A stretch of 51,195 nucleotides of DNA. Source: Burkholderiales bacterium. GTDB lineage: Bacteria > Pseudomonadota > Gammaproteobacteria > Burkholderiales > SHXO01. A program made the translations under genes and the position numbers. Shown piece by piece: positions 449-29,741 of this stretch (its first letter is position 1; every line of letters starts with the position of its first letter). The stretch lies in the NCBI GenBank assembly GCA_046160525.1, contig JBJXGQ010000406.1:1-51195 (forward strand). The letters are read 5' to 3'. The notes beneath the pieces are model-generated. The model was not told the origin of the DNA. It was given only the letters and a program-made list of their open reading frames with translations, and ran no database searches.

Positions 449-2515
449 TCAGTTGCCCGCGCGCAACGAAGCCTGCCCGGCACGTAGCGCCAGCGCTCTA
501 ACATCCAATATTTCCAGGCGCGAATACCAACCTTGAAAGGGAGCGCGTTCGGCGTTAGCGAGATGCGACTTTAGCCGTTCCAGGGCGGCAGCCGCAGTTT
601 CCAGATGTGCGCCAGCCCCTGAATTGGGAGTGAACCGCGGTGGTGCCACCATAACGGCATGTGCCAAGGCCGCCGCCGCCCGGTCGAGTTCCACAAGCAA
701 AGCGAGCGGGGTCGTGATCACGTCGTCGAAGAACGGCCGGCGCTCGGGCGCGAGCGTGGAGCGCGCTCGCTGCGCCTGATCGAGTAACGTCGTGCGTAAT
801 GCGGCCGATTGTTCGGTGCCTCGCAGGAGCGCTTCGAACTGAGTCTGTGCACCGCTGTCCCCGGGCACGATGCGGTAACGCTCGGCATCGAAAGGACGGC
901 TGGACGTTCGTTCGCCCTCGATGAGTGCGAGCAGCCGCTCTATGGCCATGCCCAGTCGCAAATCATGGAAGATGAATTGGCGTTCGAAACCGGGTAGCTG
1001 CGAGCGCCGCTGCTGCCAATAGCTGCCAAGCATTGCGCCGTACAAATTCTCAACCTGGCCGCTCGCGCTGCCGAAGTAGCGCGCGAAGATGCGTGTAACC
1101 ACTGTGTCTGTCTGCGTGCGCGGCCCCTCCCACGCCAATGCGGCATGAGCGCTCAGGTTCATGAGAAACTCGCGGACGTTGCCCACGTTCACTTTGGTGA
1201 ACTGTAGCGGGGCCCCGATGCGCTCTTCCGCCATCGCGAAATTGCGCGCGGTCTTCCACGGCCCTTCGCCCTCGGCGTAATGCGATCCGGTGGAGGTGAA
1301 TTGCAGGTTCATGTAGTAACCTCCGCGGCGGTAGGCCGGAGCAGGGTGTTCGAGCAAATCGGTGCCGGGATAGTGATCGCGCCCCTCATTGGCGAAATTC
1401 CATATGAGATCCGCATCCTCCGGCGGGCGGAAGTCCCCCGAGGCGTAGAGGCGGGATAGTTCGCTATAGATTTCGGTGCGCACCAGCGGGCGCGCCGTGC
1501 CCGTTAGGCGGCGCAGCAAATCGAGTTGCCGTTGCAGCATCTGTGTGACCACTTGGCCTTGTAGTGCCGGCGAAGTAGGAGCGTCCGCGAATGCCTCGGC
1601 GAATCCCGCGTCCGTCTTGCCGCGAAAGCCTATTCCCCAGATCATCTCGATGTTTGCTTGCGTGAGGGCATTGACCCGCGCGCTCCAAAACTCTTCGAGG
1701 CCCGCCACATTGGAAAGTAGCAGGTCCTTCGGTGCATGGTTCACACCTTGGGGCCAGTCGCGAAAGGACCCGAGGTATGGACTGGTAACGGCCAGCCCGC
1801 GCGCGCTTGCCGCAAGCACCCTCGGATGCACGAGGCCGCTGCTGTCCAGCAGCGCTTCGCCTACATCCAGGGTGTTCATCTTGAGGCGCAGTAAAGTCTC
1901 GAACAGGATCTCGTCGGTGTCGCGGCCGGTGGTTGTGGCCCAGCCGCGCAGAAAATCCGTGTTGTTTGGAAAAGCGGCGCGCCAGCGCACGTGCGGTGCT
2001 GGAATGCTTCTGTACCAATCGGAAGCAATCTGTAGCGAAGAGCGCCTCACTGGTTGCCACCTTGCCCAGAACGCGAGCGGTGGAATGCCCAGGATTTCGT
2101 CGCAGAAGGTGTAGGCGGCGTAGATCGCTCCGCGCGTTCCGGCTCCTGTCAACACCACTCGCGGCTGGCCGCTCTCGATTTGCATCCAGGCCGCATGCGA
2201 TTCCGGATCTCGCAAGAGCGCAGTGGCCTCGGCGCCCTGCGCGTGCTGCTGGGTGGTGAGCACGATGGCGGGCCGGCCGGCAATCGCCGAGCGCTCCCGC
2301 ACGATGGGTGAGGGCGCGCCCAAGACCGAGGCCAGATCGCGCGCCAAATCCGCTGCGGCACGCGCGAGCGCAGGGTGTTCGCCCGCCGCCACGAACACAG
2401 GCACGCCTGCAGGCAAGACGAGTTCAGAAGCGGGTGCGGGGGCACTTACCGCCATTGCGGTGGCGGCGAGGGAGAGTTCGCACACGAGTACGAAAAAGCG
2501 AGTGCGGATTTTCAT
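449..2515 (-). CDS. Secreted GH115-like glycoside hydrolase
   Basis: Signal peptide; ADLARDL..VLG, LTGAGTRGAIYAAYTFCDEILGIPP..FW, PHVRWR..FPN, FETLLRLKMNTL, GGYYMNLQF and VNVGNVRE resemble GH115-family segments; RBS GGAGG upstream. Confidence 0.65.
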   Translation of the reverse strand: MKIRTRFFVLVCELSLAATAMAVSAPAPASELVLPAGVPVFVAAGEHPALARAAADLARDLASVLGAPSPIVRERSAIAGRPAIVLTTQQHAQGAEATALLRDPESHAAWMQIESGQPRVVLTGAGTRGAIYAAYTFCDEILGIPPLAFWARWQPVRRSSLQIASDWYRSIPAPHVRWRAAFPNNTDFLRGWATTTGRDTDEILFETLLRLKMNTLDVGEALLDSSGLVHPRVLAASARGLAVTSPYLGSFRDWPQGVNHAPKDLLLSNVAGLEEFWSARVNALTQANIEMIWGIGFRGKTDAGFAEAFADAPTSPALQGQVVTQMLQRQLDLLRRLTGTARPLVRTEIYSELSRLYASGDFRPPEDADLIWNFANEGRDHYPGTDLLEHPAPAYRRGGYYMNLQFTSTGSHYAEGEGPWKTARNFAMAEERIGAPLQFTKVNVGNVREFLMNLSAHAALAWEGPRTQTDTVVTRIFARYFGSASGQVENLYGAMLGSYWQQRRSQLPGFERQFIFHDLRLGMAIERLLALIEGERTSSRPFDAERYRIVPGDSGAQTQFEALLRGTEQSAALRTTLLDQAQRARSTLAPERRPFFDDVITTPLALLVELDRAAAALAHAVMVAPPRFTPNSGAGAHLETAAAALERLKSHLANAERAPFQGWYSRLEILDVRALALRAGQASLRAGN

Positions 2516-2535: not shown

Positions 2536-5500
2536 CTAAAAACTATCGGCTCCTCCGCCTTGGTCCGACGCGTTGTAAAAGCGCCCGGCGGAGCGCTCCC
2601 ATAGCAGCACTTGACCCCCAAAGAATTCGCTTTGCACGCCACAGCAAGCCAGCAGAAACGCTGTGTAGCCGGCACCCATGCGGGGCAAGCGCGGATCGTC
2701 CACCACCAGCCACACACGCTCGTTTCGCAACAAAACCTCGCGCAGTTGGTCGACCTTCCATAACAGCTTGCCGCCCGCCCAGCGGTCCACGATCTCGTCC
2801 CCGCGCTGGTAGAGCCCATCGAAAGCGGGCCCTACCATCATGTAGTAATCGGCGCCGCCAAAGACGACGCCCGCGCCGGGAGTCCGCACGGCCGCGATCT
2901 TGTCTTGCGGGCGCCGGTGCGAGGCAACGTAGTCCCACGCGCGGCGGTAATCGATTTCGCGATAGGCGGAATAGGAGCGGCCAATCTTGCCGAACTCGGC
3001 CGAGACCGAGTAAGCCGCGATCAAGATGGCGGCGGCGAGGCCGGCGTAACGCTTGGCGCCATACTGTCCAAATAACCGGGAAGCTCCGGATTGCGCGGAC
3101 GCGATGTCGCGCACCATGGCCCAAGCGGTAATGAGCGCGGCGCACAGGAATACCGGATACAAGCCATATCCATAGCGGCCATTGACTGGTACGACCAGTA
3201 CCGCGAGGATGGGTACGGATACGAGCACGACCGCGTATAGCGTGAGCATCGCCGGCTCTGGGCGTTTTGCCCAGTACACCAATCCAGCCAGGAATAGGAT
3301 TGTCCACAGAGCGTTCTCGCCGTTGTTCATCCAGAAAAAATCGGTGGCCAATTGCGTGAGCACGCTCATGTCTCCGCCCAGCACGTCGGTGAGATGCGGC
3401 ACGAACAGCGGCTCGCTGCGGCTTGACAGCGCCACGTGGGGTGTCAGCGATACCGCCGAAAAGATTCGCATGTCCAGCCAGATGAGCAGCATCATCGCCA
3501 TGAATCCCAGCCAGACATTGCGGTCCTGGCGCCAGCCAAAGGGCCGGTAGCACAACAGGAACACGAGGAAGAAGGCGGCGAAAGTCGTGGCGAAGATCTC
3601 TTGGCTCAATACTGCGCAGGTGGCGAACACGAAGAAGAGAGTTTGGGCCGCCTTGCCCTCGCGCCAGATAAATCCCTTGAGGAAATAGAGCACGCTCAAC
3701 ACGGCGAAGAACTGCATCAACTGGTAGAAGCGTATGAGATTGGTGATGCCCAGCAGCCACGGGTCCAGGGCCAGGGCGAGAGCGGTTAGAAGGGCCGGTA
3801 CATGGCTTCGTGCGATGGCGCGCACCAATGCATAAGACGCGATCACCGTACCCAGACTGGGTACCAGCGAAAAGGCGCGCACGCTGGCCAAGCCGTCGCC
3901 GAACAGACTCATCCATCCGGCTAGCAGATAGTGGAAGAGCGGCGAGCGCGTATATAAGATGCCCGAGGCGGCGCGCGGTAGCCCCTCTCGCAGAATGCCG
4001 CGCGCGGCCTCCCAGCTGGTGTAGTCGTCGCCACTCGGTGGTTGAAACTCGAGGCCCGCCAAGCGCAAGGCGAGCGCCACTGTGCAGATCGCGCCCAGCC
4101 ACATGAGCGGCGAAACGCGCTGCAACGCTGCCCGCAGTGTGCCTGGCCCCGGAAGAGCGCCGCGATGCACCCAGCGCAGCGTTGCCAGCAACAACAAGGG
4201 GCCGGTCGCAAGCCAGAGGGGGCCCGCGCCGGGTGCCAGAAAGATCAGCAAACTGTCGCTTTCGGCGAAACGCGCGCGCAACGTTTCCACCGCGAGTATG
4301 CCAAAGAGCGCGGGGCCCAAGAGCCAGCATCCGCGGATTAATACGGGCGGCTCGGCGCGATCACGGCGCGTCGCTGCGCCGAGCACCCATGCCGCGCCGG
4401 CCAAGGCGGCGGCGAGCGCCAGGCCTTCTACAAACCACTTGACGGTCTGTCCCCATCCGGGTTCCGGTGAGCGTTGGTAGATGATGGGTCCTGGCGCCGC
4501 GGTACGATCATGCGCCACGGCTTGTGTCCATGTGCCTTCGCCGCGCTGCCAGCGCGGGTGATAGGCGGCCAGCGAGCGCCAACCGGTGGCGGTGGATAAG
4601 GTCTGCGCGCCGATTTTGCCGTCCACCGCGATCCATCCGGTCTGTCCGCTTGCGGCCGCGGGGCGGTCCAGCCGAAGCGACAATTGCACGGGTGCGCCAT
4701 CCAAGAAGGGGGACAAGTCGAAAGCATCCACGGAGTCCCCGCCCTGGCCTTCGCCCGCCCACCTCTCGCCTACGAATAGATCGTAAGGGGTGTGAGACCA
4801 AACCCGCACCCAGCCGTGATGTGCTCCCGGAGAGAGGGGCGCCGCAAAGATCTGCTCTTGCGCCGGTAATGGGCTTGCGATAGGCGCGGCCGCGAAGGGC
4901 GCGCGCCACACGGCGGGATCGGCTGCTACATAAAGCGGCAGTTCTTCCGGAGGAGCGCTGGGTTGCGCCGGTTGCCAATCGAGATCGTTGACCCCCGGAT
5001 CGAACCAGGGCATACCGTTGTTCGTCCCGCCTTCGCTGCTGGTGCGCCAAACGCGCGGATCTCCAGAAATTTCCGCATCGAGGTCATGGCCCATCACGTT
5101 GCCGAACACCGCGGCGCGGTTACGGCCCTCCGACTGAACATACAGAGCGATGAGGTTTGGCCCGCGCTTCAAGCGCGGCGTGAGATCGTAGAAATGCAGC
5201 ATGCGCCATTCGCGTTTCGCGGACTTGGCGCTCTGCGCGCCGCCTCCGCGCGGCAACGCATCCTCGCGCACGAGCCGCTGTGCCTGCGCGCTCCATCTAT
5301 CCTGAAAGGCGGTGCCCGCCCGTAGCAGATAACTATTGCTTCCAACCGCCGAGCCGTTGACGTAGAGCTTGTAATCCTCCGCCGCGATGGCAATCCAGGC
5401 ATGACGCGGCTCAAATGCGATGTCCAGGCGGTGCCGATAGTATCCGCGCACGCCAGGTGAGGGCGTGCTCATCCATCCGCCGGGGAGCTCTATCCGCGTG

Positions 5501-5598
5501 ATCGGGGCGCGCTCCGGGGCAATCGCGTTAGTGATATGGGCGGCGAGCAATAAGCCGCCCAATAGGAAAAACGCGCAGAATCCCAGTGCGCGCCGCAT
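2536..5598 (-). CDS. GT-C fold (GT39/PMT/ArnT-like) integral membrane glycosyltransferase with N-terminal extracytoplasmic beta-sandwich domains
   Basis: ALRLAGLEFQPPSGDDYTS, YTRSPLFHYLL, IRFYQL, NGRYGYGLYP and many TM helices; N-terminal part has YKLYVNG..VG and YDLTPRLKRGPNLIAL (rhamnosidase-N/galactose-binding-like). Start placed at ATG 5598, just after the upstream stop at 5604. Confidence 0.75.
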   Translation of the reverse strand: MRRALGFCAFFLLGGLLLAAHITNAIAPERAPITRIELPGGWMSTPSPGVRGYYRHRLDIAFEPRHAWIAIAAEDYKLYVNGSAVGSNSYLLRAGTAFQDRWSAQAQRLVREDALPRGGGAQSAKSAKREWRMLHFYDLTPRLKRGPNLIALYVQSEGRNRAAVFGNVMGHDLDAEISGDPRVWRTSSEGGTNNGMPWFDPGVNDLDWQPAQPSAPPEELPLYVAADPAVWRAPFAAAPIASPLPAQEQIFAAPLSPGAHHGWVRVWSHTPYDLFVGERWAGEGQGGDSVDAFDLSPFLDGAPVQLSLRLDRPAAASGQTGWIAVDGKIGAQTLSTATGWRSLAAYHPRWQRGEGTWTQAVAHDRTAAPGPIIYQRSPEPGWGQTVKWFVEGLALAAALAGAAWVLGAATRRDRAEPPVLIRGCWLLGPALFGILAVETLRARFAESDSLLIFLAPGAGPLWLATGPLLLLATLRWVHRGALPGPGTLRAALQRVSPLMWLGAICTVALALRLAGLEFQPPSGDDYTSWEAARGILREGLPRAASGILYTRSPLFHYLLAGWMSLFGDGLASVRAFSLVPSLGTVIASYALVRAIARSHVPALLTALALALDPWLLGITNLIRFYQLMQFFAVLSVLYFLKGFIWREGKAAQTLFFVFATCAVLSQEIFATTFAAFFLVFLLCYRPFGWRQDRNVWLGFMAMMLLIWLDMRIFSAVSLTPHVALSSRSEPLFVPHLTDVLGGDMSVLTQLATDFFWMNNGENALWTILFLAGLVYWAKRPEPAMLTLYAVVLVSVPILAVLVVPVNGRYGYGLYPVFLCAALITAWAMVRDIASAQSGASRLFGQYGAKRYAGLAAAILIAAYSVSAEFGKIGRSYSAYREIDYRRAWDYVASHRRPQDKIAAVRTPGAGVVFGGADYYMMVGPAFDGLYQRGDEIVDRWAGGKLLWKVDQLREVLLRNERVWLVVDDPRLPRMGAGYTAFLLACCGVQSEFFGGQVLLWERSAGRFYNASDQGGGADSF

Positions 5599-5603
5599 GA
5601 CCG

Positions 5604-6983
5604 TCACCACGTTTCGGGCCGCAGCGAGCGGGCGTGCAACTCGTGCGCCCGCGCTACGTCGCCGCGGTGAAAGGCGGCCCAACTGTCCAATACCGCCACT
5701 TGCGCGCCAATGGCCAAGCGCTTATAGCCGAGGTAACGCTGCAACCGGGCCACCTGCCGCATGGCTTGCGCGGCCCCCGTGTAATCTCCCTGCTTCATGC
5801 GCACCAGAGAGAGCCCGTACCAAGCCATGGGATTGGCGGGCAAGTAGAGCAAGGATTCGCGCCAATTCTCCGCGGCTGCGCCGGTTTGTCCCTGGTCGAA
5901 AGCATGAATGGCGGCTTCCGAGAGCGCCACGGCCAAGTAGCGGTTAAGCGGCGCGGCTTGCGGGTACAGCGTGTGCGCCTGGCGCAGCAAGCCGGCCGCC
6001 GTGTGCGGCGCGCCTTGCTGCAAGGCGTCGTAAGAACGCGCAAGCAGGGATTCCAGCGCAGCGGGTTGGTCCTCAATCCCTGCCACATGGCCAAGCCGGC
6101 GGTAATGTGCCCAACTCTCCCTTAGGGCGCGCTTGCCAGATGGCGCCGCCCGTAGATGCTCGAGCGCCAGGGCATGGTCGCCGCGCCGCTGCGCACCTTC
6201 GGCCTGAAGCAGATGCCACTCCGCGGCGAGGCGCGGCCCCAGCGGAATTGCGATCAAGACCGCCACGGCCAAGGCGCACCCACTCATCGCGCTCCAAAAT
6301 GGGTGCCATCCACCCGGGTTCGCCAGGTGCAATCCGCTCAGCACCAGTACGATTCCCACGGCCGCGCAGGCAATGAGCCGCGAATGGAAGAAAGCCAAGA
6401 ATGCGGGCGAGAGCCCCAGCACTTCCTCGATCGCTCGGTGCGCATTGGCGAGAGAAAAGTACGAAGGCCGCCAAGGGGGGGCGGAGCCGGGCAGCGGAAG
6501 GTTGGTGACCGATTCTCGGGCAAAGGTCTGCCCGGCTCTCCAATCGGTCTGCTGGTTAGCCAAATTCTCATCGATGTCCTCGGCGACGCGGTTGATCTCA
6601 TGGTAAAGAAATGCTCTTTCCTGCATGCGCTCCGCTTGAAAATGGGCGAGCCAGCACGGGTAGGCGAGCGTTGCGGCCGGAAGGCACCACGCCAGCCGCA
6701 CCGCCCAGCGCGTTTCCTTAAGCCCGCGCCAACACGCCCGCAGAAACAGCAATCCTGCCACGACGGTACCAATCCGCAAGAGCAAGTCGAGCAAGTAGAT
6801 CTCCTCCACCAGTATTGGAGCGCCGCTGGAGGAGATGGAAGACAAAGCGGCCGAGGGATGCTTAGGCCAAGGCGAAAGCGCGCACGCGATGAGCAACAGC
6901 GCACCGAGACTAGTCATCCACACAGTACGATCGGCGGCCAATGCCCGCTGGTAGAATTCACGCGGATGAATATGCGCTCGCAT
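5604..6983 (-). CDS. Membrane protein with C-terminal TPR repeats
   Basis: Several hydrophobic helices then TPR-like helices (PANPMAWYGLSLVRMKQGDY..A); abuts neighbouring genes. Confidence 0.7.
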   Translation of the reverse strand: MRAHIHPREFYQRALAADRTVWMTSLGALLLIACALSPWPKHPSAALSSISSSGAPILVEEIYLLDLLLRIGTVVAGLLFLRACWRGLKETRWAVRLAWCLPAATLAYPCWLAHFQAERMQERAFLYHEINRVAEDIDENLANQQTDWRAGQTFARESVTNLPLPGSAPPWRPSYFSLANAHRAIEEVLGLSPAFLAFFHSRLIACAAVGIVLVLSGLHLANPGGWHPFWSAMSGCALAVAVLIAIPLGPRLAAEWHLLQAEGAQRRGDHALALEHLRAAPSGKRALRESWAHYRRLGHVAGIEDQPAALESLLARSYDALQQGAPHTAAGLLRQAHTLYPQAAPLNRYLAVALSEAAIHAFDQGQTGAAAENWRESLLYLPANPMAWYGLSLVRMKQGDYTGAAQAMRQVARLQRYLGYKRLAIGAQVAVLDSWAAFHRGDVARAHELHARSLRPETW

Positions 6984-7964
6984 TCAGGTGCCGCGCCAGG
7001 AAACGCCGGGCGTGGATTTCCGGCTGCGTACGAGTAGTACCCCGCCAGCGAGGCTCAACAAAATGCCCAGGCCGTGAACGGTGAGCGATACCGCCATCAC
7101 ATCGGGCGCGCCGACACCCACTTGCGCGAATAGCACCACAAAGGCCGCCTCGCGAATCCCAAGGCCCCCGAAGCTTAGCGGCAGCAACATGAGGAGCGTG
7201 ACAGGAGGCAAGAACAATAGGAAATAACGCAGATCGATGCTGATATCCAAGCCCAGCGCGACGAGCCCGTAGAACAACGCATACAAGCCCTGAATAGCCA
7301 CTGACAGCAGCACCGCGCGCACCAGGGTGCCAGGATGCTGGCGGTAACTGGCCAGCGTGTCATGGAATTCCCGCAAGCGATTCCCCGTTCCCCAGGGTAG
7401 AAAGCGGCCAAGCAGGCGCTGAATTCCATTTGCGAGGGGAGGCCACCACAAGGCTAGTGCAATGCCCATCAGCAACACAGCCGAGCCTCCCACGGCACCG
7501 AGGATGAGCGGCTGGCCGGTGCCGGGAGGGTAGGCGGCCAGCGCGCCGATGGAGATCAATCCTAGGCCCAGCAGGCCAGCGAAGCGCTCCAGGAATACCG
7601 AACCCAGTGCGTAATGTCCTTGGCCGCAGTGGCGGTACAGAAAATAGCTCCTGGCCGCATCACCGCCGACGGCACCCGGCAGGAAGTTATTCAGGAACAT
7701 TCCGCTCATGTAGTAGGAGAACAAACTCGCCAGGGGCACGCCGATGCCCTTGGCGTCCAAGAACATCCGCCAGCGCCATGACGAGAGTAATTGGCATCCC
7801 GCGTAGTACAGACAAGCGAGCAGCACAAAGGCTGGAGACAACTTTTGCAGTGGCGCGATAACCCGCGCCGGATCCACGTGCCAAAGCAGAGTACCGAGCA
7901 GCGCCAGGCTAATGCCCAGCCGCACGGCGACCCGCGAGCCGCGATGACCAAGCAACCGCTTCAT
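6984..7964 (-). CDS. Lysylphosphatidylglycerol synthase TM / UPF0104 flippase-like protein
   Basis: SWRW, FLNNFLPGAVGGDAAR, SVFLERF.GL and LPLSFGGLGIRE motifs. Confidence 0.85.
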   Translation of the reverse strand: MKRLLGHRGSRVAVRLGISLALLGTLLWHVDPARVIAPLQKLSPAFVLLACLYYAGCQLLSSWRWRMFLDAKGIGVPLASLFSYYMSGMFLNNFLPGAVGGDAARSYFLYRHCGQGHYALGSVFLERFAGLLGLGLISIGALAAYPPGTGQPLILGAVGGSAVLLMGIALALWWPPLANGIQRLLGRFLPWGTGNRLREFHDTLASYRQHPGTLVRAVLLSVAIQGLYALFYGLVALGLDISIDLRYFLLFLPPVTLLMLLPLSFGGLGIREAAFVVLFAQVGVGAPDVMAVSLTVHGLGILLSLAGGVLLVRSRKSTPGVSWRGT

Positions 7965-10489
7965 TGCAGGTTGGTGCGAACCGTTGGCGAGAAATGGCTC
8001 TCGGTACCCGGCGCTTGCGAGTCTGCGAGTTCACGAGTGCCGGGTTGCGATGTTGCCACCGCTACCTTGTCCCCTTCCTTCAACGCCGTTTGCCCGTTCA
8101 CCACCACCAAGTCTCCCACGCCAATGCCCCCGGATTCGACCGCGATCCAACCCTCCGAGGCGCCAGAGTAAGTGACGGGCTCGACGCGCAATTCATTGGA
8201 ATTTCCGACGGCGAGTACCGTGCCCGTGCGCCCCGAGTAGCGCGTCAATGCGCGTTCAGGTAACGCGGCCGCCTTATATCGTTGCTCGAAAATCGCATAG
8301 CCGTTCATGCCCGGAAGCAGGCCTCCAGTGCGCACATGCTCGCTCGGAATGGACATCCACACCGAGAACGTGAATGGTGGCGGGTCGCCCGCGCGCCGCT
8401 GCTCGGCGCTTCGTACCGCGTGCGACACGCGAAGCACCTGCGCGGGGAATGGCTGTCCAGGCCGGGCCCGAAGATAAAACCTTCCCTGCGCTCCTTCGCG
8501 CAGCATGCCGGCATAGCGCTGGTCGATCTCGGCTCGAAAGACCATCTGGTCTCCAAGGACCATGAGCGGTTCTTTCAAGTTCACCAGATTCTCGCCCAAC
8601 TGAACGTTGCGCTCGATCACCGTACCTGCCATGGTGGCGGCAATGACCACACGCCGGTCTCGCACGGAAGTACCTGCCCAGGGCAGAGGCTCGCCGGTGA
8701 CCGTGGCGCTGCGCGAGCGCAGCGAATGCGCATACTCCTCAAATGCCAGCCGCGAGGCGATCTCGGCCCGCTGCATGCTGGCCGTGGCGCCGTCCAGGCG
8801 TGCCTTGCTGGTGAAGTTAGACTCGTAGAGTCTTTGCTCTCGCTCCAAGTCGAGATTGGCTTGTTTGCGCTCGGACTGGCTCAGCTGGCGCCGCAAGTCG
8901 AACATGCGGGTCGTATGTGCGCCTGGGCTGATGTACAGCAAAGGTCTGCCGCGTTGAATGCTCTCGCCTGCTTCCACCAGGATCTGCGTGACGATACCAG
9001 GTACCTCGCTGTGCACTGGAATCTCGTTCAGGTAGGCGGTCAAGCCCTCCGCCGCGATGACGCGTACCATGGTGCGTAGTTGCACGGTTTCGGCTTGCAC
9101 CTCGATGGGCCGGCCGAGCACTCGCATCACGGCAGGATAGCCCAATTTGCCGGCGAACGCGCGCGACTGGGGCGACCAATAGGCAGGCACGAAGACATAC
9201 AGTGCGACTAAGGCGCTCACAGCCACGGCGGCAATCAAGATCTTTCCTTGGATGCCACGCGCGCCAATTTTCGCAACGGGTTGCGCCCGAGAGCGCACGC
9301 GGGATTCCAGGTAGTTACCGATGGCATCGCGATAGATGCCGAGTAGCTCCGCATTAATGCGCTCCCAATTGAAATGTTCTTGTACGTGGTGCCACCCCGA
9401 TCGCGCCAGCTTGGCGGCGAGCGCATGATCTTGCAGCAGCTTCACCACTGCGGCGGCGAGAGCCGCCGGGTCCTTTTGCGGCACTAGCAAGCCGGTTCGT
9501 TCATGCTGGATTACGTCCGGGATGCCTCCGACTTCGGAGGCTACAACCGGCGTCATGAAACTCAAAGCCTCGATGAGCACCACTCCCAATCCTTCCGTAT
9601 CGCCGCGTTCATCGACGATGGCGGGTAGCACGAATACGTCGGCGCTCGTGTAATGTTGCTCGAGAACCGTGGCCGAAACGGCACCGTGGAAGGTGACTAT
9701 TTCGCTTAGGCCGAGCGCCGTCGCAAGTGCCATCCAATCGTCTGCCCGGTCACCATCTCCCACCACGTGCAGATGCACAGGCAGCTGCGCCGCGATGGCC
9801 GGCAGCGCGTGCAGCAGAACATCGAGCCCCTTGCGCGCCACGAGGCGGCCCGTGAACAAGATTTCCTTTACCGGCTTATGCGGATCCTTGTAGGATGGCC
9901 GCGCGTTCACGGTGCAGCCGAAGGGCAAGACCGTTACCGCGCGCGCGGTGAGCCGCGCCACCTCGCCGGCGGTGTACCGGGAATTGCAAATCACGGCGGC
10001 GGCATGGCGTAGAGCGGGCCTGAGGAACCACGTCACGAAGGGATACTTCTTTTGTAGCAGAAGTTCCGCGCCATGGAAGGTGAACACGACGGGCGCGCGC
10101 GTGAGCCAGCCCGCCATAAGCCCCCAAAGGCCGTGCGGAAAGGGCCAGTGGACGTGGATCAAATCGAAGCGTTGTTTGCGGCACAAGGCGATGGCATGCA
10201 CCAGTCCAAAGACAATGTAAAAGGCCGCGACCGCGAGATAGAGCGGGTTGCGCAGCCGGTTCGGCGCGCCTTGATTGTGGGTTAGATTTTCCCAGCGCCT
10301 TAAAAAGTAGCGAAAGCGATGGACTGTCACGCCATCTAGAACTTGGCTGCCCCCTCCTTCGTAGCTGGGAGCGAACACGTGTACATCCATGCCGCTCGCC
10401 TTTAATTGCCGCACGCTCTCCACCAAGAACGGGACATTGGTATCGCTCTCGGAGAGTTTGTAGCTCGATGTCATTACACAGATCTTCAT
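7961..10489 (-). CDS. GT4 glycosyltransferase fused to an RND/HlyD-type periplasmic adaptor (membrane fusion protein)
   Basis: aa 1-~390: DLIHVHW, FTGRLVARKG, EGLGVVLIEAL...PVVASEVGGIPDVI; one TM helix; then SEVPGIVTQILVEAGESI, coiled coil, GTVIERNVQLGE, LPGMNG and GDLVVVNGQ..LKEGDKV. Confidence 0.8.
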   Translation of the reverse strand: MKICVMTSSYKLSESDTNVPFLVESVRQLKASGMDVHVFAPSYEGGGSQVLDGVTVHRFRYFLRRWENLTHNQGAPNRLRNPLYLAVAAFYIVFGLVHAIALCRKQRFDLIHVHWPFPHGLWGLMAGWLTRAPVVFTFHGAELLLQKKYPFVTWFLRPALRHAAAVICNSRYTAGEVARLTARAVTVLPFGCTVNARPSYKDPHKPVKEILFTGRLVARKGLDVLLHALPAIAAQLPVHLHVVGDGDRADDWMALATALGLSEIVTFHGAVSATVLEQHYTSADVFVLPAIVDERGDTEGLGVVLIEALSFMTPVVASEVGGIPDVIQHERTGLLVPQKDPAALAAAVVKLLQDHALAAKLARSGWHHVQEHFNWERINAELLGIYRDAIGNYLESRVRSRAQPVAKIGARGIQGKILIAAVAVSALVALYVFVPAYWSPQSRAFAGKLGYPAVMRVLGRPIEVQAETVQLRTMVRVIAAEGLTAYLNEIPVHSEVPGIVTQILVEAGESIQRGRPLLYISPGAHTTRMFDLRRQLSQSERKQANLDLEREQRLYESNFTSKARLDGATASMQRAEIASRLAFEEYAHSLRSRSATVTGEPLPWAGTSVRDRRVVIAATMAGTVIERNVQLGENLVNLKEPLMVLGDQMVFRAEIDQRYAGMLREGAQGRFYLRARPGQPFPAQVLRVSHAVRSAEQRRAGDPPPFTFSVWMSIPSEHVRTGGLLPGMNGYAIFEQRYKAAALPERALTRYSGRTGTVLAVGNSNELRVEPVTYSGASEGWIAVESGGIGVGDLVVVNGQTALKEGDKVAVATSQPGTRELADSQAPGTESHFSPTVRTNLQ

Positions 10490-11511
10490 GCGGGTCTCCT
10501 TGCAAACGCGCTAGCCACGGGTTCCATCGCTGGGTAATCCGTGGCCCCGGCTGTCTCCATTTGGCGGTGATGCACCTGTTCCGCGATACTGTAAGAGGGT
10601 TCCTCGCGGGTCTGGTGAGAAGCCAGCATTTCCGCCAGGATTCCCATGGAGAACATTTGCGCTCCCAGAAGCATGAAACCGGTGGAATAAATCATCAGCG
10701 GCCGCTCGCTGAGTGGCAAGTAGGCAAGGGGATCGATCAAGCGCACCACCCATGTTAGCGACAGATAAGCAAGCACGCCCGTGCCGCTCAGCAGCATCAG
10801 CAGTCCGATACTTCCGAGCACATGCTGCGGGCGCTGCCCAAAGCCAGTCAGAAATTTGACCGTGAGCAGATCCAGGAAACCCTTCAACAGGCGGCTCATG
10901 CCGTACTTGGATTCGCCGAAGCGGCGCGCGCGGTGACGCACTTCCATTTCGCCCACGCGAAAGCCGCGCGCGGCCGCGAGCACGGGGATGAAGCGGTGGC
11001 GCTCGCCATACAGACGCACTTCGAGCAGCACGCTGGAGCGGTAAGCCTTCATGCCGCAGTTGTGATCGTGTAAAGCAACGCCCGTCACCCAACTGACCAT
11101 GCGATTGAATACGCGGCTGGGTAGCACTTTATGCCAGGGATCGTGGCGCTCGCGCTTCCACCCGCTGACTAAATCGAGGTCGTTGTGCAACTTGGCGAGC
11201 AAGGCGGGTATTTCCGCGGGGTCGTCTTGAAGATCGGCGTCCAGCGTGACGATCGTGTCGCCACGCGCCGTGGCGAATCCGGCGCTCAGCGCCGCAGCCT
11301 TGCCGAAGTTGCGGCGAAATCGAATGCCTTTAACGCGCGCATCGCTTCGTACCAGCGCGCGGATCGTCTTCCAGGAATCGTCCGTGCTGCCATCGTCGAC
11401 AAATACCGCTTCGAGGTCCAGGCGCGCGGCCGCCGCCACTTGCACGATTTCATCCCACAGGCGCGCGAGGCTGCGGGCTTCGTTATACACAGGAATTACG
11501 ATGGATATCAT
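10486..11511 (-). CDS. GT2 polyprenyl-phosphate sugar transferase (ArnC/DPM1/GtrB-like)
   Basis: ISIVIPVYNE, VDDGSTD, RRNFGKAAAL, TLDADLQDDP, GERHRFIP, two C-terminal TM helices; AAGGAG RBS before ATG 11511. Confidence 0.9.
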   Translation of the reverse strand: MISIVIPVYNEARSLARLWDEIVQVAAAARLDLEAVFVDDGSTDDSWKTIRALVRSDARVKGIRFRRNFGKAAALSAGFATARGDTIVTLDADLQDDPAEIPALLAKLHNDLDLVSGWKRERHDPWHKVLPSRVFNRMVSWVTGVALHDHNCGMKAYRSSVLLEVRLYGERHRFIPVLAAARGFRVGEMEVRHRARRFGESKYGMSRLLKGFLDLLTVKFLTGFGQRPQHVLGSIGLLMLLSGTGVLAYLSLTWVVRLIDPLAYLPLSERPLMIYSTGFMLLGAQMFSMGILAEMLASHQTREEPSYSIAEQVHHRQMETAGATDYPAMEPVASAFARRPA

Positions 11512-11579
11512 TGTGGTCTCCTTATCCCAATCAGCGAACCTTAGCGGTAAGTTTTGCGTGCGAACCGCCGTAGTCTTCA

Positions 11580-12094
11580 TGTTTCATGTTAGTAGGAGCG
11601 CTAAGTCCGGATCGATCCAACGAAAATGAATGCGAGAACAACGACGCCTGATGACGACTCATTGCAAGTTGTATTTCACATTTTCTATCGCGTGGGGATA
11701 TTTCAATTCCGTACTAAGACTGTATATACAATCAGTCAGCGATGGAGTATGGCGACGTATCTGTCGCTACAAAGAGAATGTCAAATCCACGGGTAATCCA
11801 GGCGCCGAACGAGAAAGCCGAGCGAATCGTGTCTCACGCAAGCGCCACTTATCGCCCCGCGATTCCTAAGGCCGTAAATTAAATGTAGCCAATAATGTTT
11901 TGTTTATAAGTGCATTGCAAAGTGGTGGCACCCTTGCTGCGATGCCCTCGGAAAGTGCGCATATTCGGAGGATTCTTCACATCTCCTCTAAGCGTATGCG
12001 CGGATGCCCTTGTTTCGGTCATGCCAACGCCGCCCAGGGGTGGATATGCCGGTTTCCGCAAGAGAGACCGGAAAAATAGAAGTGAGAGACCTAC
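11580..12094. promoter_or_regulatory. AT-richer divergent promoter region between the glycosylation operon and the TPR/phosphatase pair
   Basis: Visibly AT-rich, no credible ORF, flanked by divergent starts; exact promoter elements not resolved. Confidence 0.5.
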
Positions 12095-12991
12095 ATGACT
12101 TGTACTGAATTTCAGGCACGCCCCGCGCCCTCTGTCTCCATATCACGACATCCGAAGCCTGCATCGCTACCCTCGCTCGCCGGGCTAATCGTAGGCTTCA
12201 GCTTGTGTGCCGTGCAGCCAGCGTGGACGCATGGCGATTCGCACGAACGCATCGAGGCGTTGAGCGAACAACTGAAACAACAGCCCGAAAGCGCGCCCCT
12301 CTACCTACGCCGGGGCCAATTGCACCGGCAAGAAGGGCGCTGGGACGCGGCCTTGAAGGATTTCGAGCGCGCGATCGAACTGGACTCCGAGTTGGACGAG
12401 GCGGTTCTCATGCGCGGGCTCACATTGCTCGATGCGCGCAGCCCCACTGCGGCGATCGCCGCGTTAGATAGTTTCCTCGCCCGCTCACCCTCGCATCACG
12501 TGGCATTGCTAACGCGTGCTCGAGCATGGGCCAGTCTGGGCGCCGGGCATGCCGCGGCGAGCGATTTTTCGCGCGTATTGGCGCAGCGCCCGAGCGCGGA
12601 TCTATACGTGGAAAGAGCGCGTGCCCTGGCCAGCATGGGTGCGGGCTATATGGACGAAGCGTTGCGCGGTCTCGACGAGGGAATCGCCGCCCTAGGGCCC
12701 AATGTGGTGCTCATCGATGTCGCGGTGGAACTGGAACTCGCGCGCGGAGAACCTGAGAAGGCTTTGGAGCGCCTGGCGCAGCGCACAGGAGAGGCGGCAT
12801 CGCCCGAGAGCGAGATGCGCCGGGGAGAAATTCTGGAGCAAAACGGCCGGGTCGCGGAGGCGCTCGCCGCCTATAAGCAAGCCCGGCAGGCGCTGGCCAA
12901 ACGCGCGCTCGTGCGGCGCCATACGCGAGCCGCCAGCGAACTCGATAACCGCCTTCACGCCGCTTTCGAGCGTCTTGGCGTCCGCGACTGA
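12095..12991 (+). CDS. Exported TPR-repeat protein
   Basis: Signal-like LIVGFSLCAVQPAWT followed by HGDSHERI; TPRs such as LYLRRGQLHRQEGRWDAALKDFERAIELD; true start may lie downstream. Confidence 0.8.
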   Translation: MTCTEFQARPAPSVSISRHPKPASLPSLAGLIVGFSLCAVQPAWTHGDSHERIEALSEQLKQQPESAPLYLRRGQLHRQEGRWDAALKDFERAIELDSELDEAVLMRGLTLLDARSPTAAIAALDSFLARSPSHHVALLTRARAWASLGAGHAAASDFSRVLAQRPSADLYVERARALASMGAGYMDEALRGLDEGIAALGPNVVLIDVAVELELARGEPEKALERLAQRTGEAASPESEMRRGEILEQNGRVAEALAAYKQARQALAKRALVRRHTRAASELDNRLHAAFERLGVRD

Positions 12992-13000
12992 TATACAAGC

Positions 13001-16000
13001 ATGAATGGGAGACCGAACGTGGAATTGCATATGAAAAAAGAAGTGGTTCTTGAATCAGGATTGCCGGGCGCTTTGTGGCTGGCGCACGCGCTCTGCTGCG
13101 CGCTATTGCTCGCGATTTGCATGGTCATTGCGCCATCGAGTGCGCAAGCGCAAACGGTAGTGCGCGGCCCATACCTGCAATCGGCTACTCCCACGAGCAT
13201 CGTGGTGCGATGGCGCACCAGCGTGGCAACCGACAGCCGTGTTCGCTATGGCGCCTCCGCCACGAGCTTGACGGCGTCGGCGGGCAGCACCGTCTCGGCC
13301 ACCGAGCATGCCGTAACGCTAACGGGCTTGGCGCCCGCCACCAAGTATTTCTACTCCGTGGGGTCGTCCACCGCGAGTTTGGCCGGCGGCGACTCGACCC
13401 ACTTCTTCATCACGCCACCGTCCGTGGGCGCGGTCCAACCCACGCGTATCTGGGTCATCGGGGATGCCGGCGAGAACAGCACCGGCCAGCGCCAAGTACG
13501 CGACGCTTATCTCGCCCGCACCGGCGCCAACTACACCCATCTATGGCTCATGCTGGGCGACAATGCCTACGATAGCGGCACCGATGCCGAGTATCAGGCT
13601 GCGGTCTTCAATATCTATCCCACCTTGCTTCGGCAAAGCGTCGTGTGGCCCACCTTGGGAAACCACGATGGCGCAACCGCTAACTCGTCCACTCAGACCG
13701 GGCCCTATTACGACATCTTTACCCTGCCGAGAAATGGCGAGGCTGGCGGCGTTCCCTCCAATACCGAAGCCTATTACTCGTTCGACTATGCCAACATTCA
13801 TTTCGTGGTGCTGGATTCCTTCGAGACCAATCGCGCGAGCAATGGCGCGATGCTAAATTGGCTGCGCCAGGATCTGGCGGCCACCAGGCAAAAATGGATC
13901 ATCGCCTTCTGGCACCACCCGCCTTACTCCAAGGGCTCGCACGATTCGGACAGCGAGACGGAATTGGTGCAAATGCGCGCCAATGCGCTGCCAATCTTCG
14001 AGGACTTCGGCGTGGATCTGGTGCTCACCGGACACAGCCATGCCTACGAGCGTTCTTTTCAGATCGATGGTCATTACGGGAGTTCCAGTACCTTCAATCC
14101 GGCCACCATGCAGGTCAACGGTGGTGCCGGACCTTACGAGCGGGTCACCGACGGATCCGTTCCCGGCGCTCTGTACGCCGTGGCGGGGAGTTCGGGAAGC
14201 GTCAGCGGTTCCGGTAGTCTCAACCATCCCGTGATGTATACCTCGGTCCGGGAACTCGGTTCGATGGTGTTGGATATCAATGGTGACACGCTCGACGCCG
14301 TGTTCATAAACAACACTGGGACCGTGCGCGACAGTTTTCGAATGGTGAAGACGGTGGGTCTACCCAGCGTCACCGTTAGCGCGACCGATGCCACCGCTAC
14401 CGAAGCGGGGCTAACGACCGGAACCTATTCCGTAACGCGTACGGGCAGCACAACGGCGCCGCTCACCGTTACTTACAGCATGAGCGGATCGGCCACCCAG
14501 GGCAGCGACTACTCAGCCCTGACGGGCAGCGTGACCATACCGGCGGGGGCCGCGGCGGCGACGATCACGCTCGTACCGATTAACGACGCTTTATTGGAAC
14601 CCACCGAGACCGCTATCCTGACACTTTCCGCCAATGCCGCCTACCGCACCGGCACGCCGGGAAGCGCGACAATCACAATCGCAAGCGACGAGCAGCCACC
14701 TACCGTAAGCATCACCGCGAGCGACTCCTTGGCGACCGAGGCGGGTCCCACCACCGGAACCTTCACCGTCTCGCGCACCGGTGACGCTACGGCTCCGCTC
14801 ACCGCCTCCCTGACCGTAGGAGGTACTGCCACCAGCGGCAGCGACTACACCGCCTTACCGGCAAGTGTGACGATTCCGGCTGGCTCGGCGAGCGTATTGG
14901 TCACGGTCACGCCCGTCAATGACACATTAGTGGAGGCCGACGAGACCGTTGTACTCAGTTTGGCAAGTAGCGCGAACTACACGGTGGGGACGGCAAGCGC
15001 GACGATCACTATCGCAAGTGATGATGCCGCCCCGGCAAGCGTAAGCGTGGCCGCGACGGACGCCAGCGCCACCGAGGCCGGGCCCACTACCGGCACATTC
15101 ACCATCACACGAACCGGTGCCACTACCGCGGCGCTGGCTGTCAACTACACCATGAGCGGAACGGCCACGGCGGGAAGCGATTACCTGTCACTGAGTGGAA
15201 GCGTGACCATTCCGGCAGGCGCGGCGAGCGCCACGGTGACCATCACTCCGGTCAACGATACCCTGGTAGAGAGCAACGAGACGGTCGTACTCACCTTGGC
15301 GAATGCTTCCACCTATACGGTGGGAACCGCCAGCGCGACCGTCACCCTCACTAGTGACGACGTCGCACCTGCCACCGTGAACGTGACGGCAAGCGATGCT
15401 TCGGCCACTGAAGCAGGTCCAACCACGGGTACCTTCACCGTCTCGCGCACCGGTGACGCTACCGCTCCGCTCACCGCCTCCCTGGCCGTAGGAGGTACTG
15501 CCACCAGCGGCGGCGATTACACCGCTTTACCGGCCAGTGTGACGATTCCGGCTGGCGCGGCGAGCGTTGCGGTCACGGTCACGCCTGTCAACGACACATT
15601 GGTGGAGGGCGACGAGACCGTTGTACTCAGTTTGGCAAGTAGCGCGAACTACACGGTCGGGACGGCGAGCGCGACGGTCACTATAACAAGTGACGATATC
15701 GCCCCGGCCAGCGTAAGCGTGGCCGCGACAGACGCCAGCGCCACCGAGGCCGGGCCGACCACCGGTGCCTTTACCGTAACCCGAACCGGGGCCACGACCG
15801 CGGCGCTGTCCGTCAACTACACCATGAGCGGTACGGCCACGGCGGGAAGCGATTACCTGTCACCGAGTGGAAGCGTCACTATCCCAGCGGGCGCGGCGAG
15901 CGCCACGGTTACCATTACTCCGGTCAACGATACCCTGCTCGAATCGAATGAGACGGTAGTACTGACCTTGGCCGCGGGTGTGGCGTACAGCACCGGCAGT

Positions 16001-16876
16001 CCCGCCAGTGCCACCGTTACCATCACGAGTGACGAGGTCGCGCCTACGGTGAGTGTCGCTGCCGCCGACAGCTCCGCCGCGGAATCTCCGCTCGATACCG
16101 GTGTTTTCAGGATAGCGCGCACGGGCGCGACCACTTCGGCGCTGACGGTCGGATTCAGCATGAGTGGAACGGCCACGAACGGTGCCGACTACGTGAGTCT
16201 TCCGGCCAGCATTACGATCCCGGCTGGGTCAGCATCCGTGCAGGCAACCGTCACCCCCATTAACGACACGTTGATTGAAAGCGGCGAGACCGTGGTCTTG
16301 ACCCTTTTCACCGGCACCGGCTATGCGCTGGGCACTCCGGCAAGCGCCAGCGTGACGCTAACAAGCGAGGACGGTTCGATACCCACTCCGGCGAACCACA
16401 TCGTGAGCCGGGTGTTCGACAACAAGAACGGGAAGGCATATTGGACGGGCGGTCCCGATGGTTCGGAGCCGGCGGACGATTTGCGCTCCATGACCTTCGA
16501 TCCGCTCAAGATCGAGGTCGAGGCGGGCGCGACCTACTGGTGGGAAGCGGAATATCAAGACCCGGCCGCAACGGCAGTTCATCCAACCGTCGTTAAGGTC
16601 ATTATCGATAACCGCCCGGAAGAAGACTGGTCGGGAAGCTTCACGGCGGAAGCGCGTATCGGTACCACCTTGCTGGCTTCCGTCCAGTTGCCGGTCAATG
16701 GCAACAAGGATCCGGTCACAGGCAAGGGGACTCGAACGCGCTACGAGTGGGATCTCTCGGCGCTGGTGAAAACCCGGGAAGGTTTGGCGGGACTCAAGCT
16801 GCGACTGATCAACAACGCTCGTAACGGCAAGAAGGTTTGGGCGGTCTATTCGGTGACGCAAAGCAACTCCCAGTAA
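13001..16876 (+). CDS. Secreted purple-acid-phosphatase-type metallophosphoesterase with FN3-like N-domain, six Calx-beta repeats and an unassigned C-terminal domain
   Basis: Signal peptide ending SAQA; RGPYLQ start of the PAP N-domain; all five metal-ligand blocks GDAG, GDNAY, GNHD, FWHHP, GHSH; repeats T.SGTAT.GSDY...V.IPAG...ITPVND.L.E..ETVVLTL; start may be ATG 13031. Confidence 0.9.
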   Translation: MNGRPNVELHMKKEVVLESGLPGALWLAHALCCALLLAICMVIAPSSAQAQTVVRGPYLQSATPTSIVVRWRTSVATDSRVRYGASATSLTASAGSTVSATEHAVTLTGLAPATKYFYSVGSSTASLAGGDSTHFFITPPSVGAVQPTRIWVIGDAGENSTGQRQVRDAYLARTGANYTHLWLMLGDNAYDSGTDAEYQAAVFNIYPTLLRQSVVWPTLGNHDGATANSSTQTGPYYDIFTLPRNGEAGGVPSNTEAYYSFDYANIHFVVLDSFETNRASNGAMLNWLRQDLAATRQKWIIAFWHHPPYSKGSHDSDSETELVQMRANALPIFEDFGVDLVLTGHSHAYERSFQIDGHYGSSSTFNPATMQVNGGAGPYERVTDGSVPGALYAVAGSSGSVSGSGSLNHPVMYTSVRELGSMVLDINGDTLDAVFINNTGTVRDSFRMVKTVGLPSVTVSATDATATEAGLTTGTYSVTRTGSTTAPLTVTYSMSGSATQGSDYSALTGSVTIPAGAAAATITLVPINDALLEPTETAILTLSANAAYRTGTPGSATITIASDEQPPTVSITASDSLATEAGPTTGTFTVSRTGDATAPLTASLTVGGTATSGSDYTALPASVTIPAGSASVLVTVTPVNDTLVEADETVVLSLASSANYTVGTASATITIASDDAAPASVSVAATDASATEAGPTTGTFTITRTGATTAALAVNYTMSGTATAGSDYLSLSGSVTIPAGAASATVTITPVNDTLVESNETVVLTLANASTYTVGTASATVTLTSDDVAPATVNVTASDASATEAGPTTGTFTVSRTGDATAPLTASLAVGGTATSGGDYTALPASVTIPAGAASVAVTVTPVNDTLVEGDETVVLSLASSANYTVGTASATVTITSDDIAPASVSVAATDASATEAGPTTGAFTVTRTGATTAALSVNYTMSGTATAGSDYLSPSGSVTIPAGAASATVTITPVNDTLLESNETVVLTLAAGVAYSTGSPASATVTITSDEVAPTVSVAAADSSAAESPLDTGVFRIARTGATTSALTVGFSMSGTATNGADYVSLPASITIPAGSASVQATVTPINDTLIESGETVVLTLFTGTGYALGTPASASVTLTSEDGSIPTPANHIVSRVFDNKNGKAYWTGGPDGSEPADDLRSMTFDPLKIEVEAGATYWWEAEYQDPAATAVHPTVVKVIIDNRPEEDWSGSFTAEARIGTTLLASVQLPVNGNKDPVTGKGTRTRYEWDLSALVKTREGLAGLKLRLINNARNGKKVWAVYSVTQSNSQ
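14360..16372 (+). repeat. Six tandem ~112-aa Calx-beta coding repeats; units 2-3 and 4-5 form a 672-nt duplication
   Basis: CTTCACCGTCTCGCGCACCGGTGACGCTAC occurs at 14761 and 15433, and GAGACCGTTGTACTCAGTTTGGCAAGTAGCGCGAACTACACGG recurs at the same offset. Confidence 0.9.
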
Positions 16877-18907: not shown

Positions 18908-18935
18908 GCTTTCCTCCCTTTAATCAATCTTATTT

Positions 18936-19072: not shown

Positions 19073-19090
19073 ACCGTTCACCTCACTTTC

Positions 19091-22883: not shown

Positions 22884-22889
22884 GACGAC

Positions 22890-28296: not shown

Positions 28297-28326
28297 AGTG
28301 TCACCTCAAGAAATAAACGCATCGCC

Positions 28327-29656: not shown

Positions 29657-29741
29657 GGGGAAAGGTAATGGGCGAAAAGAGGGGTCTATTTTCCTTGCCA
29701 CCTGCCATGGGTGTCAAGAATGGCATTCAATAATATTGCGT

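Follow-up and report, generated by a model that had tools for sequence, protein, structure and literature searches.

A glycosyltransferase and a periplasmic adaptor in one reading frame

The stretch of DNA analysed here (hereafter, the window) is the whole of contig JBJXGQ010000406.1 (C406; 51,195 nt) from the Burkholderiales bacterium assembly GCA_046160525.1 (genome G000), a fragmented metagenome-assembled genome (MAG) of 541 contigs that is 92% complete. The element of interest is an open reading frame (ORF; P0001), the second gene of a minus-strand run (Table 1), in which a family 4 glycosyltransferase (GT4), a 31-residue linker, a single transmembrane (TM) helix and a four-domain adaptor resembling AcrA and MexA, that is, a membrane fusion protein (MFP), follow one another over 842 residues without an internal stop. 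The initial annotation of the window had described just such an ORF, without naming its strand, with an intact-looking cytoplasmic GT4 ahead of the TM helix and a periplasmic adaptor behind it, and this description holds in the light of the stop-free frame, Pfam, hydropathy, an AlphaFold2 (AF2) model, the invariant columns of the GT4 and the basic residues ahead of the TM helix. The ATG at 10489 is supported as the start codon by an alignment with the orthologous GT4s of two relatives, L052 and L022 (see below), which match the protein from its first residue.

Pfam detects both GT4 halves between residues 16 and 383, and five GT4 models score above their cut-offs (E-values of 9.5e-39 for Glyco_trans_1_4, 1.3e-36 for Glycos_transf_1 and 1.9e-21 for Glyco_trans_4_4). 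The domain retains 41/41 of the columns that are invariant in an eight-row alignment of its clade; invariant in this alignment are E299-x7-E307, which makes up the EX7E motif, together with Arg215 and Lys220, the basic residues of the C-half that are expected to bind the nucleotide sugar. Its nearest solved relatives are generic, namely, Tll1590, PimB', PimA and BshA (E from 1e-22 to 1e-16). The GT4 half looks intact, and a glycosyltransferase role is predicted for it.

Five Arg or Lys residues precede the single TM segment, and the GT4 is, therefore, expected to be cytoplasmic and the adaptor periplasmic (N-in). Within the adaptor, Pfam finds HlyD_3 (residues 616-707; 38 bits against a cut-off of 22.2) and HlyD_D23 (residues 611-692), and the NCBIfam model TIGR01730 (RND_mfp) aligns over residues 464-811 with 93.5 bits, narrowly under its cut-off of 94.9. 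An AF2 model of residues 400-842, built from a 57-row alignment, has a predicted local distance difference test score (pLDDT) of 90.8 and a predicted template modelling score (pTM) of 0.78; besides the TM helix, it contains lipoyl, β-barrel and membrane-proximal domains and a hairpin whose two helices are each ~30 residues long. When this model was compared with the PDB using Foldseek, 72 matches were obtained at E<=0.001, and all those listed are adaptors, headed by TMexC, AcrA, MexA and MacA (E from 8e-21 to 3e-18). The hairpin tip carries an RLS motif, whose arginine, leucine and serine are present in, respectively, 56/57, 30/57 and 40/57 rows of the subfamily alignment; this motif (RxxxLxxxxxxS) is reported to bind the tip of TolC in MacA, AcrA and HlyD (PMC3391258). 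The subfamily is a distinct one, to the extent that the only match to it in G000 at E<=1e-10 is the fusion ORF itself. Three more distant adaptors (P0097, P0101 and P0106) bear other cytoplasmic N-terminal domains, either pentapeptide repeats or a response-regulator receiver, and are, thus, precedents for a layout of cytoplasmic domain, TM helix and MFP.

Table 1. Positions of the features discussed, in window coordinates unless the feature is marked as belonging to the Thiotrichaceae locus L052; the last column gives amino acid identity to the L052 counterpart
Feature	Position	Strand	Description and evidence	Identity to L052
GT4-adaptor fusion ORF	7961..10489	minus	842 aa, stop-free; second gene of the minus-strand run	
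GT4 (GT-B) glycosyltransferase domain	9335..10489	minus	residues 1-385, cytoplasmic; Pfam, 8-row alignment, L052 orthologue	51% over 383 aa
Linker	9242..9334	minus	residues 386-416; in relatives this stretch holds the end of the GT4, its stop, a spacer and the start of the MFP; DNA alignment, translations	
TM helix	9185..9241	minus	residues 417-435; hydropathy 2.61; model residues 11-39 helical in AF2 model	
Periplasmic adaptor (MFP)	7964..9184	minus	residues 436-842; lipoyl, α-hairpin, β-barrel and membrane-proximal domains; Pfam, TIGR01730, AF2, Foldseek	38%
Hairpin-tip RLS motif	8807..8842	minus	R550-x3-L554-x6-S561; end of helix 1/start of helix 2 in the model	
GT2, ArnC/GtrB-like polyprenyl-phosphate sugar transferase (predicted)	10486..11580	minus	364 aa; Pfam Glycos_transf_2 4.7e-30	30%
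Flippase-like LPG_synthase_TM/TIGR00374 protein	6984..7964	minus	326 aa, about 8 TM segments; Pfam 2.2e-47; NCBIfam TIGR00374	42% (L051 orthologue too)
Membrane protein with C-terminal TPR repeats	5604..6983	minus	459 aa; Pfam TPR_16; 4 hydrophobic segments	27% over full length
GT-C, PMT_2/ArnT-like	2536..5682	minus	up to 1048 aa; Pfam PMT_2 28.8 bits (cut-off 26.1); 10 hydrophobic segments	33.5% over 1020 aligned columns
GH115-like protein	449..2515	minus	688 aa, N-terminal signal-like helix; last gene of the run; Pfam Glyco_hydro_115 2.1e-25	
L052 GT4	8795-9994		separate gene	
L052 MFP	10001-11218		separate gene	

The exact fusion sequence is present in the ESM Atlas, where its structural neighbours span the GT4 part only and the entry gives no usable feature match. 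A search of a plasmid collection found no match, and the run search returned DNA runs only, with no RNA run carrying the stretch. The GC content of the gene set lies between 0.57 and 0.66, as against about 0.60-0.63 elsewhere, and, therefore, gives no clear island signal of foreign origin.

The surrounding gene set and its counterpart in Thiotrichaceae

The set in question comprises an ArnC-like GT2, the GT4, the adaptor, a flippase-like protein, a TPR membrane protein and a PMT_2-type GT-C. The GT2 matches the NCBIfam ArnC model NF007986 at 8e-57 over 6-313 of its 316 positions, which is below the equivalog cut-off, and PgfS at 2.5e-37; it has one strong hydrophobic segment. Its stop codon overlaps the start of the GT4 (ATGA), and the start of the flippase-like gene overlaps the stop of the MFP in the same manner (ATGA), an arrangement that is predicted to couple the translation of each pair. 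The TTG start listed for the GT-C overlaps the TPR gene by 79 nt (5604-5682); as the alignment with the L052 GT-C begins only at residue 52, the true start probably lies downstream. The GH115-like protein that ends the run is not common to L052, having no similarity to the ORF at the same position there.

Apart from the fusion ORF, none of the 32 window ORFs scanned carries a pump or channel domain according to Pfam, which was the sole means by which major facilitator superfamily (MFS) members were sought. Six-frame family searches of the genome likewise place on the window contig 0/16 of the OEP matches, 0/19 of the ACR_tran matches and 0/110 of the ABC_tran matches; the 16 OEP-domain matches fall at nine other loci, and many genes for resistance-nodulation-division (RND) and ATP-binding cassette (ABC) transporters lie elsewhere in G000. 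The initial annotation was, thus, correct in finding no ABC, RND or TolC gene in the window, but its further description of the adaptor as an orphan proves to be wrong once relatives are considered.

These relatives were reached through a subfamily member of NCBI origin (P0222/P0052), which led to contigs of two Thiotrichaceae MAGs, L051 and L052; among the genomes searched, the order of these MAGs is represented by those two alone. In L052, the genes run as follows: an acetyltransferase/DegT aminotransferase fusion, GT2, GT4 (399 aa), adaptor (405 aa), an OEP/TolC-family protein (465 aa), LPG_synthase_TM, TPR, PMT_2 GT-C (1018 aa), an unknown ORF, a GFO/IDH/MocA oxidoreductase and an AMP-binding enzyme. 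L051 has the same order from the adaptor onward, the OEP gene included. In both, the OEP/TolC-family gene directly follows the MFP gene and precedes the flippase-like gene, and both keep the GT4 and the MFP as separate, adjacent genes. All six members of the window set find a match in L052 at 27-51% identity and in the same order (Table 1), from which we conclude that the whole set is orthologous between the two. Since the GT4, MFP, flippase-like, TPR and GT-C genes share both orthology and order with the Thiotrichaceae, the adaptor is best assigned to the glycosylation set rather than to an efflux pump; indeed, no classical pump gene was found among the 15 L052 ORFs scanned. The flippase-like gene adjoins the MFP or the outer membrane factor (OMF) in 4/4 loci whose downstream side is visible.

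The genes that flank the L052 set, a hexapeptide-acetyltransferase/DegT-aminotransferase fusion (L052:6058-7860) and a GFO/IDH/MocA oxidoreductase with an AMP-binding enzyme (19038-21213), have the character of sugar-nucleotide tailoring genes and hint at an amino- or uronic-acid sugar.

Fused and separate homologues

Among 35 near-length matches and six further matches to the MFP region, a GT4 and an MFP occur in one protein only in P0001 and P0002. The latter (498 aa), which comes from another NCBI assembly, aligns in a single frame first with query residues 152-226 (58/75 identical) and then with residues 431-841 (329/411), so that its adaptor is intact, although it is without about residues 227-417 of the query GT4. 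Two short loci were recovered by a scan of metagenome contigs. In L022 (61% identical in the MFP part), a GT2 precedes a GT4 remnant, in which query residues 1-51 are joined to 305-369, and this shares one frame with the adaptor (L022:843-1999); query residues 52-304 are missing, and a single TAA, situated in the conserved GT4 tail, stands between the two parts, the adaptor again being intact. In L021 (59%), by contrast, the GT4 ends in a TAA, 24 nt beyond which an adaptor of 430 aa begins with its own ATG; a flippase-like ORF comes next.

Elsewhere, the adaptor is mostly called as a standalone protein. A word-indexed search for shorter proteins gave 41 matches, 38 of which belong to the subfamily at 34-63% identity and were called standalone; they comprise 33 full-length proteins (394-459 aa) and five fragments. 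Many have their own Met-started cytoplasmic tail, and in the standalone forms this N-terminal tail runs to 12-117 residues (mostly 20-80) before the conserved motif that follows the TM helix, although a few of the calls begin inside the TM helix, so that the assigned starts are uncertain. When the adaptor part was searched exhaustively against 1.84 billion representatives with HMMER, 2185 matches were obtained, 37 of them at E<=1e-30. The eight longest of the best 150 of these 2185 (proteins of up to 1474 aa) yielded no GT4 domain (0/8); instead, two have a receiver domain and one has pentapeptide repeats ahead of the adaptor. The combination of GT4 and HlyD parts in one protein, a domain search for which the initial annotation had proposed as a check, is, thus, real in P0001 and P0002 and rare among the proteins examined, which do not amount to a full census. 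The ancestral state is, on these comparisons, two genes.

In a tree of 27 adaptor sequences, the window protein and P0002 group together (100/100), whereas L022 pairs with P0191 and L021 with P0195 within an unresolved polytomy. The GT4 is as well conserved as the MFP, the respective identities being 65% and 59% to L021, and 77% and 80% to P0002. The linker of the window is 54 nt shorter than its equivalent in L021 and 42 nt shorter than that in L022, and the fusion, therefore, arose when the stop codon that ended the GT4, the spacer behind it and the start of the MFP were lost without disturbing the codons; the difference from L021 is a net 54 nt, preserves the codons and is distributed over several gaps.

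A read-level check of the junction, also suggested by the initial annotation, gave the same answer. Unitigs from four sequencing runs, all of one study, were aligned on 7800-10700: 19/19 are at least 99% identical over this interval and contain no indels, a single 151-nt unitig from run X3 covers the linker from end to end (9238-9388) with zero differences, and further unitigs tile 9044-9430, where the four runs agree exactly. The runs are probably the assembly's own data; given this and the low depth, the agreement excludes a consensus error without constituting independent proof. The initial annotation had allowed that homologues might always be two genes and the junction a one-off stop loss or assembly error. 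The former is mostly true (L021, L051, L052 and the 33 full-length standalone proteins), the exceptions being P0002, which is fused, and L022, which has both parts in the same frame; the latter does not survive the unitigs, P0002 and L022. Neither a slip in the assembly nor, strictly speaking, a unique event accounts for the fusion, which is best read as lineage-restricted.

The GT4 clade contains further fusions. P0003 and P0004 (725 and 765 aa) combine a GT4, 43-44% identical to that of the window, with LPG_synthase_TM; P0006 (570 aa) joins a GT4 to NUDIX; and P0008 (996 aa) joins one to a GT2 and a second GT4, fusions to GT2 being found in others besides. Taking the adaptor, flippase-like and GT2 fusions together, this GT4 clade has been tethered to three different members of the set across lineages.

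The fusion, the set behind it and competing explanations

Based on these data, the 842-aa ORF is probably a genuine, lineage-restricted in-frame fusion of neighbouring genes from a conserved envelope-glycosylation set, the mechanism of which has to be inferred. On the best reading, the fusion points to the GT4 as physically associated with a so far undescribed machine that handles glycoconjugates across the envelope.

Periplasmic adaptors bridge energised pumps (ABC, RND or MFS) to TolC-type channels, and three-component systems for periplasmic glycosylation are represented by GtrA/B/C, ArnC/E/F/T and CsbB/GtcA/YfhO. From such family knowledge, extended to MprF-type flippases, a mechanism may be sketched. 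The GT2 would load a sugar onto polyprenyl phosphate, while the GT4 would glycosylate an acceptor linked to a membrane lipid at the inner leaflet; the flippase-like protein would carry the lipid-linked sugar outward, where the GT-C, with the TPR protein, would use it in the periplasm. The adaptor would oligomerise on one of the inner-membrane proteins of the set and use the RLS motif at its hairpin tip to engage a TolC-family channel, which is encoded within the set in Thiotrichaceae and would be encoded elsewhere in the present genome. The outcome would be a route for the product, or a scaffold, across the envelope without an ABC, RND or MFS energiser. By exchanging the cytoplasmic tail of the adaptor for the GT4, the fusion would tether sugar transfer in the cytoplasm to the conduit in the periplasm at a fixed ratio of 1:1.

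As inner-membrane partner of the adaptor, the flippase-like protein and the GT-C appear about equally likely, or both may belong to one complex. The flippase-like protein is favoured as the translationally coupled neighbour that lies beside the MFP or OMF gene at every locus where this can be seen; the GT-C, unlike the flippase-like protein, has large extramembrane regions. The initial annotation had proposed that the adaptor may dock on the GT-C or flippase and so couple cytoplasmic sugar transfer to trans-periplasmic export; such coupling is plausible, given the conserved synteny, the OMF gene and the intact docking motif, and the earlier interpretation as a whole is partly supported.

How far the set departs from known systems can be judged from five comparisons. 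It conforms to the three-component scheme, in that an ArnC/GtrB-like GT2, a flippase-like protein and a PMT_2/ArnT-type GT-C share one locus; however, its flippase-like protein is of the MprF-type LPG_synthase_TM family in place of GtrA or ArnEF, and the set adds components that fall outside that scheme, namely, the GT4, the MFP, the TPR membrane protein and the OMF of the Thiotrichaceae versions. MprF itself is both synthase and flippase, so that the enzyme modifying the lipid is attached to the membrane protein by which its product is handled. This logic is mirrored in P0003 and P0004, whereas in the window it is the adaptor that carries the GT4, and the next gene encodes the flippase-like protein.

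The adaptors of tripartite efflux and type I secretion systems (AcrA, MexA, MacA and HlyD) share with the window adaptor the four-domain fold (Foldseek E about 1e-20) and the RLS tip, and MacA and HlyD also have an N-terminal TM anchor. The Thiotrichaceae sets also have a TolC-family gene adjoining that of the adaptor. The differences are that the TIGR01730 score falls just short of its cut-off, that no ABC, RND or MFS gene is encoded with the adaptor in the window or among the 15 L052 ORFs, that the neighbouring membrane proteins are flippase-like and GT-C, and that a complete enzyme occupies the N-terminus.

A likeness in layout is offered by Alg44 of the Pseudomonas aeruginosa alginate synthase, a single polypeptide in which a functional domain in the cytoplasm is likewise joined through one TM helix to an MFP-like domain in the periplasm; it acts together with a glycosyltransferase and forms a bridge to components of the outer membrane (PMC4436075). 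Pfam finds no PilZ match in the fusion protein, as would be expected of an Alg44-type co-polymerase, and the window adaptor, unlike Alg44, has a full AcrA-type hairpin with the RLS motif. Additionally, Alg44 is partnered by Alg8, a processive GT2 synthase in the membrane, while the GT2 of the window resembles ArnC and has 364 aa and one strong hydrophobic segment. In the heterocyst glycolipid exporter DevBCA-HgdD of Anabaena, an MFP and a TolC-like channel are dedicated to bringing a glycolipid to the outer layers (PMC6161253, 10.1101/489914). The ABC transporter DevCA powers that export; it has no equivalent here, and no glycosyltransferase is known to be fused to DevB.

A bolder claim, which we advance tentatively and regard as somewhat doubtful, is that the set represents an undescribed class of trans-envelope machine, in which an AcrA-like adaptor and a TolC-family channel would be coupled to an MprF-type flippase-like protein, a PMT_2 GT-C or both, instead of to an ABC, RND or MFS pump, and would deliver a glycolipid or a GT-C-made glycan to the surface; the GT4-adaptor and GT4-flippase fusions would then be 'Rosetta stone' evidence for the GT4 as a physical subunit. 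A literature search, to which subscription journals were largely inaccessible, found no description of a GT4-MFP fusion, nor of an MFP or OMF paired with an LPG_synthase_TM protein.

Several observations weigh against these readings. The fused form, and the subfamily as a whole, are rare: no orthologue was found in 27 other genomes of the genus, where the best matches are other MFPs at 26-29% identity; 0/400 other sampled genomes of the phylum carry a subfamily member; and scans of reference genome contigs found no relative with a 10-row subfamily alignment and, with P0222, two loci only, L051 and L052. For the GT4, the best match in 40 relatives' genomes reaches at most 38%. Gene context is visible at only five loci and, because L022 sits elsewhere in the polytomy, one origin of the same-frame state is indistinguishable from two. 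The read support is low in depth (2-6x), consists of short unitigs and is probably not independent, as it likely derives from the source sample of the assembly. With respect to the mechanism, G000 (92% complete) contains no match to the L052 OEP, and the window's set has no OEP of its own; the flippase-like protein has almost no periplasmic mass, and its small loops would fit a four-domain adaptor poorly; and the binding partner, the substrate and the product are all putative. Moreover, the GT4 is damaged in 2/3 same-frame lineages (P0002 and L022), so that the join, instead of being adaptive, may belong with other deletions to the decay of this region.

This last point underlies what we regard as the foremost competitor, although we judge it unlikely: a neutral or degenerative fusion at a deletion-prone GT4/MFP boundary, which would bring no new function, might be a step toward loss of the GT4, and would leave the halves to work or fail as they do when separate. 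The large in-frame GT4 deletions of P0002 and L022, accompanied in the latter by a nonsense codon and in both by intact MFP parts, are as this explanation would have it, as is the rarity of the fused form (two proteins with both parts among the 35 + 6 matches, against 33 full-length standalone proteins). The window GT4, however, keeps every invariant residue of its clade and is as conserved as the MFP beside it, and the natural fusions of GT4 with flippase-like domains imply that this enzyme has repeatedly been tethered to membrane partners of the set.

It is improbable, to a greater degree, that the ORF yields two proteins because translation starts also, or mainly, within the linker, in which case a separate adaptor would be made and the fusion would be largely nominal. 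Two candidate in-frame starts are present. A start at GTG 9298 would give the adaptor a basic cytoplasmic tail ahead of its TM helix, as in the standalone homologues, and TTG 9238 has a Shine-Dalgarno-like stretch of the AAGGA type 6 nt in front of it; the latter codon, however, falls inside the TM helix and would provide no basic tail, and, with no stop upstream, ribosomes engaged on the GT4 would run through into the adaptor in either case.

An artefact of assembly or sequencing, in which an indel error or a chimeric join merged two genes, might be suspected from the fragmentation of the MAG and the shallow and probably non-independent reads, but is highly improbable, as the linker differs from that of L021 by a codon-preserving net shortening spread over several gaps rather than by a slip of 1-2 nt, the unitigs agree exactly over 9044-9430, and both P0002, from an independent assembly, and L022 carry the two parts in one frame. 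Just as remote is the proposal that the MFP is an ordinary efflux adaptor serving an ABC, RND or MFS pump encoded elsewhere and that its glycosylation neighbours are coincidental: the fold, the near-threshold TIGR01730 score and the many RND, ABC and OEP genes in the genome would suit it, but orthologous neighbours keep their order at 27-51% identity in Thiotrichaceae, and also in L021 and L022, the scanned L052 ORFs include no pump gene, and the subfamily stands apart from the other MFPs of the genome and genus.

Returning to the lineage-restricted fusion as the preferred reading, the fusion itself is a rare new variant of known parts, and of greater interest is the gene set from which it comes: in Thiotrichaceae, as in a betaproteobacterial MAG and its metagenomic relatives, an adaptor whose TolC-docking tip is intact lies inside a polyprenyl-phosphate glycosylation set that no pump accompanies. 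If the adaptor and channel do serve the flippase-like protein or the GT-C, they would constitute a new way of moving lipid-linked glycans across the periplasm and a new class of partner for MFPs, with the fusion as a natural covalent tether that names the cytoplasmic enzyme of the complex. Should the fusion prove to be merely a neutral deletion product, it would be a modest curiosity; the conserved set merits experiment either way.

The remainder of the window holds genes of other kinds. Divergent from the set, on the plus strand (12095-16876), two proteins are encoded: one of 298 aa with TPR repeats, and one of 1291 aa in which a purple-acid-phosphatase N domain and a metallophosphoesterase domain are combined with six Calx-beta repeats. 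The interval 17573-29701 encodes a type III glutamine-synthetase-like protein, a GCV_T/sarcosine-oxidase-alpha-like protein, Fer4_20 with Pyr_redox_2, a GXGXG and Glu_synthase fusion, a class-II GATase and a DAO protein, and is followed by a formamidase (31226-32722); we presume that this run and the formamidase resemble the N-methylglutamate route of methylamine use. Finally, about 24 kb from the set (34446-38628), a 959-aa histidine kinase precedes a protein with receiver and EAL domains, a predicted two-component pair that would degrade cyclic di-GMP.

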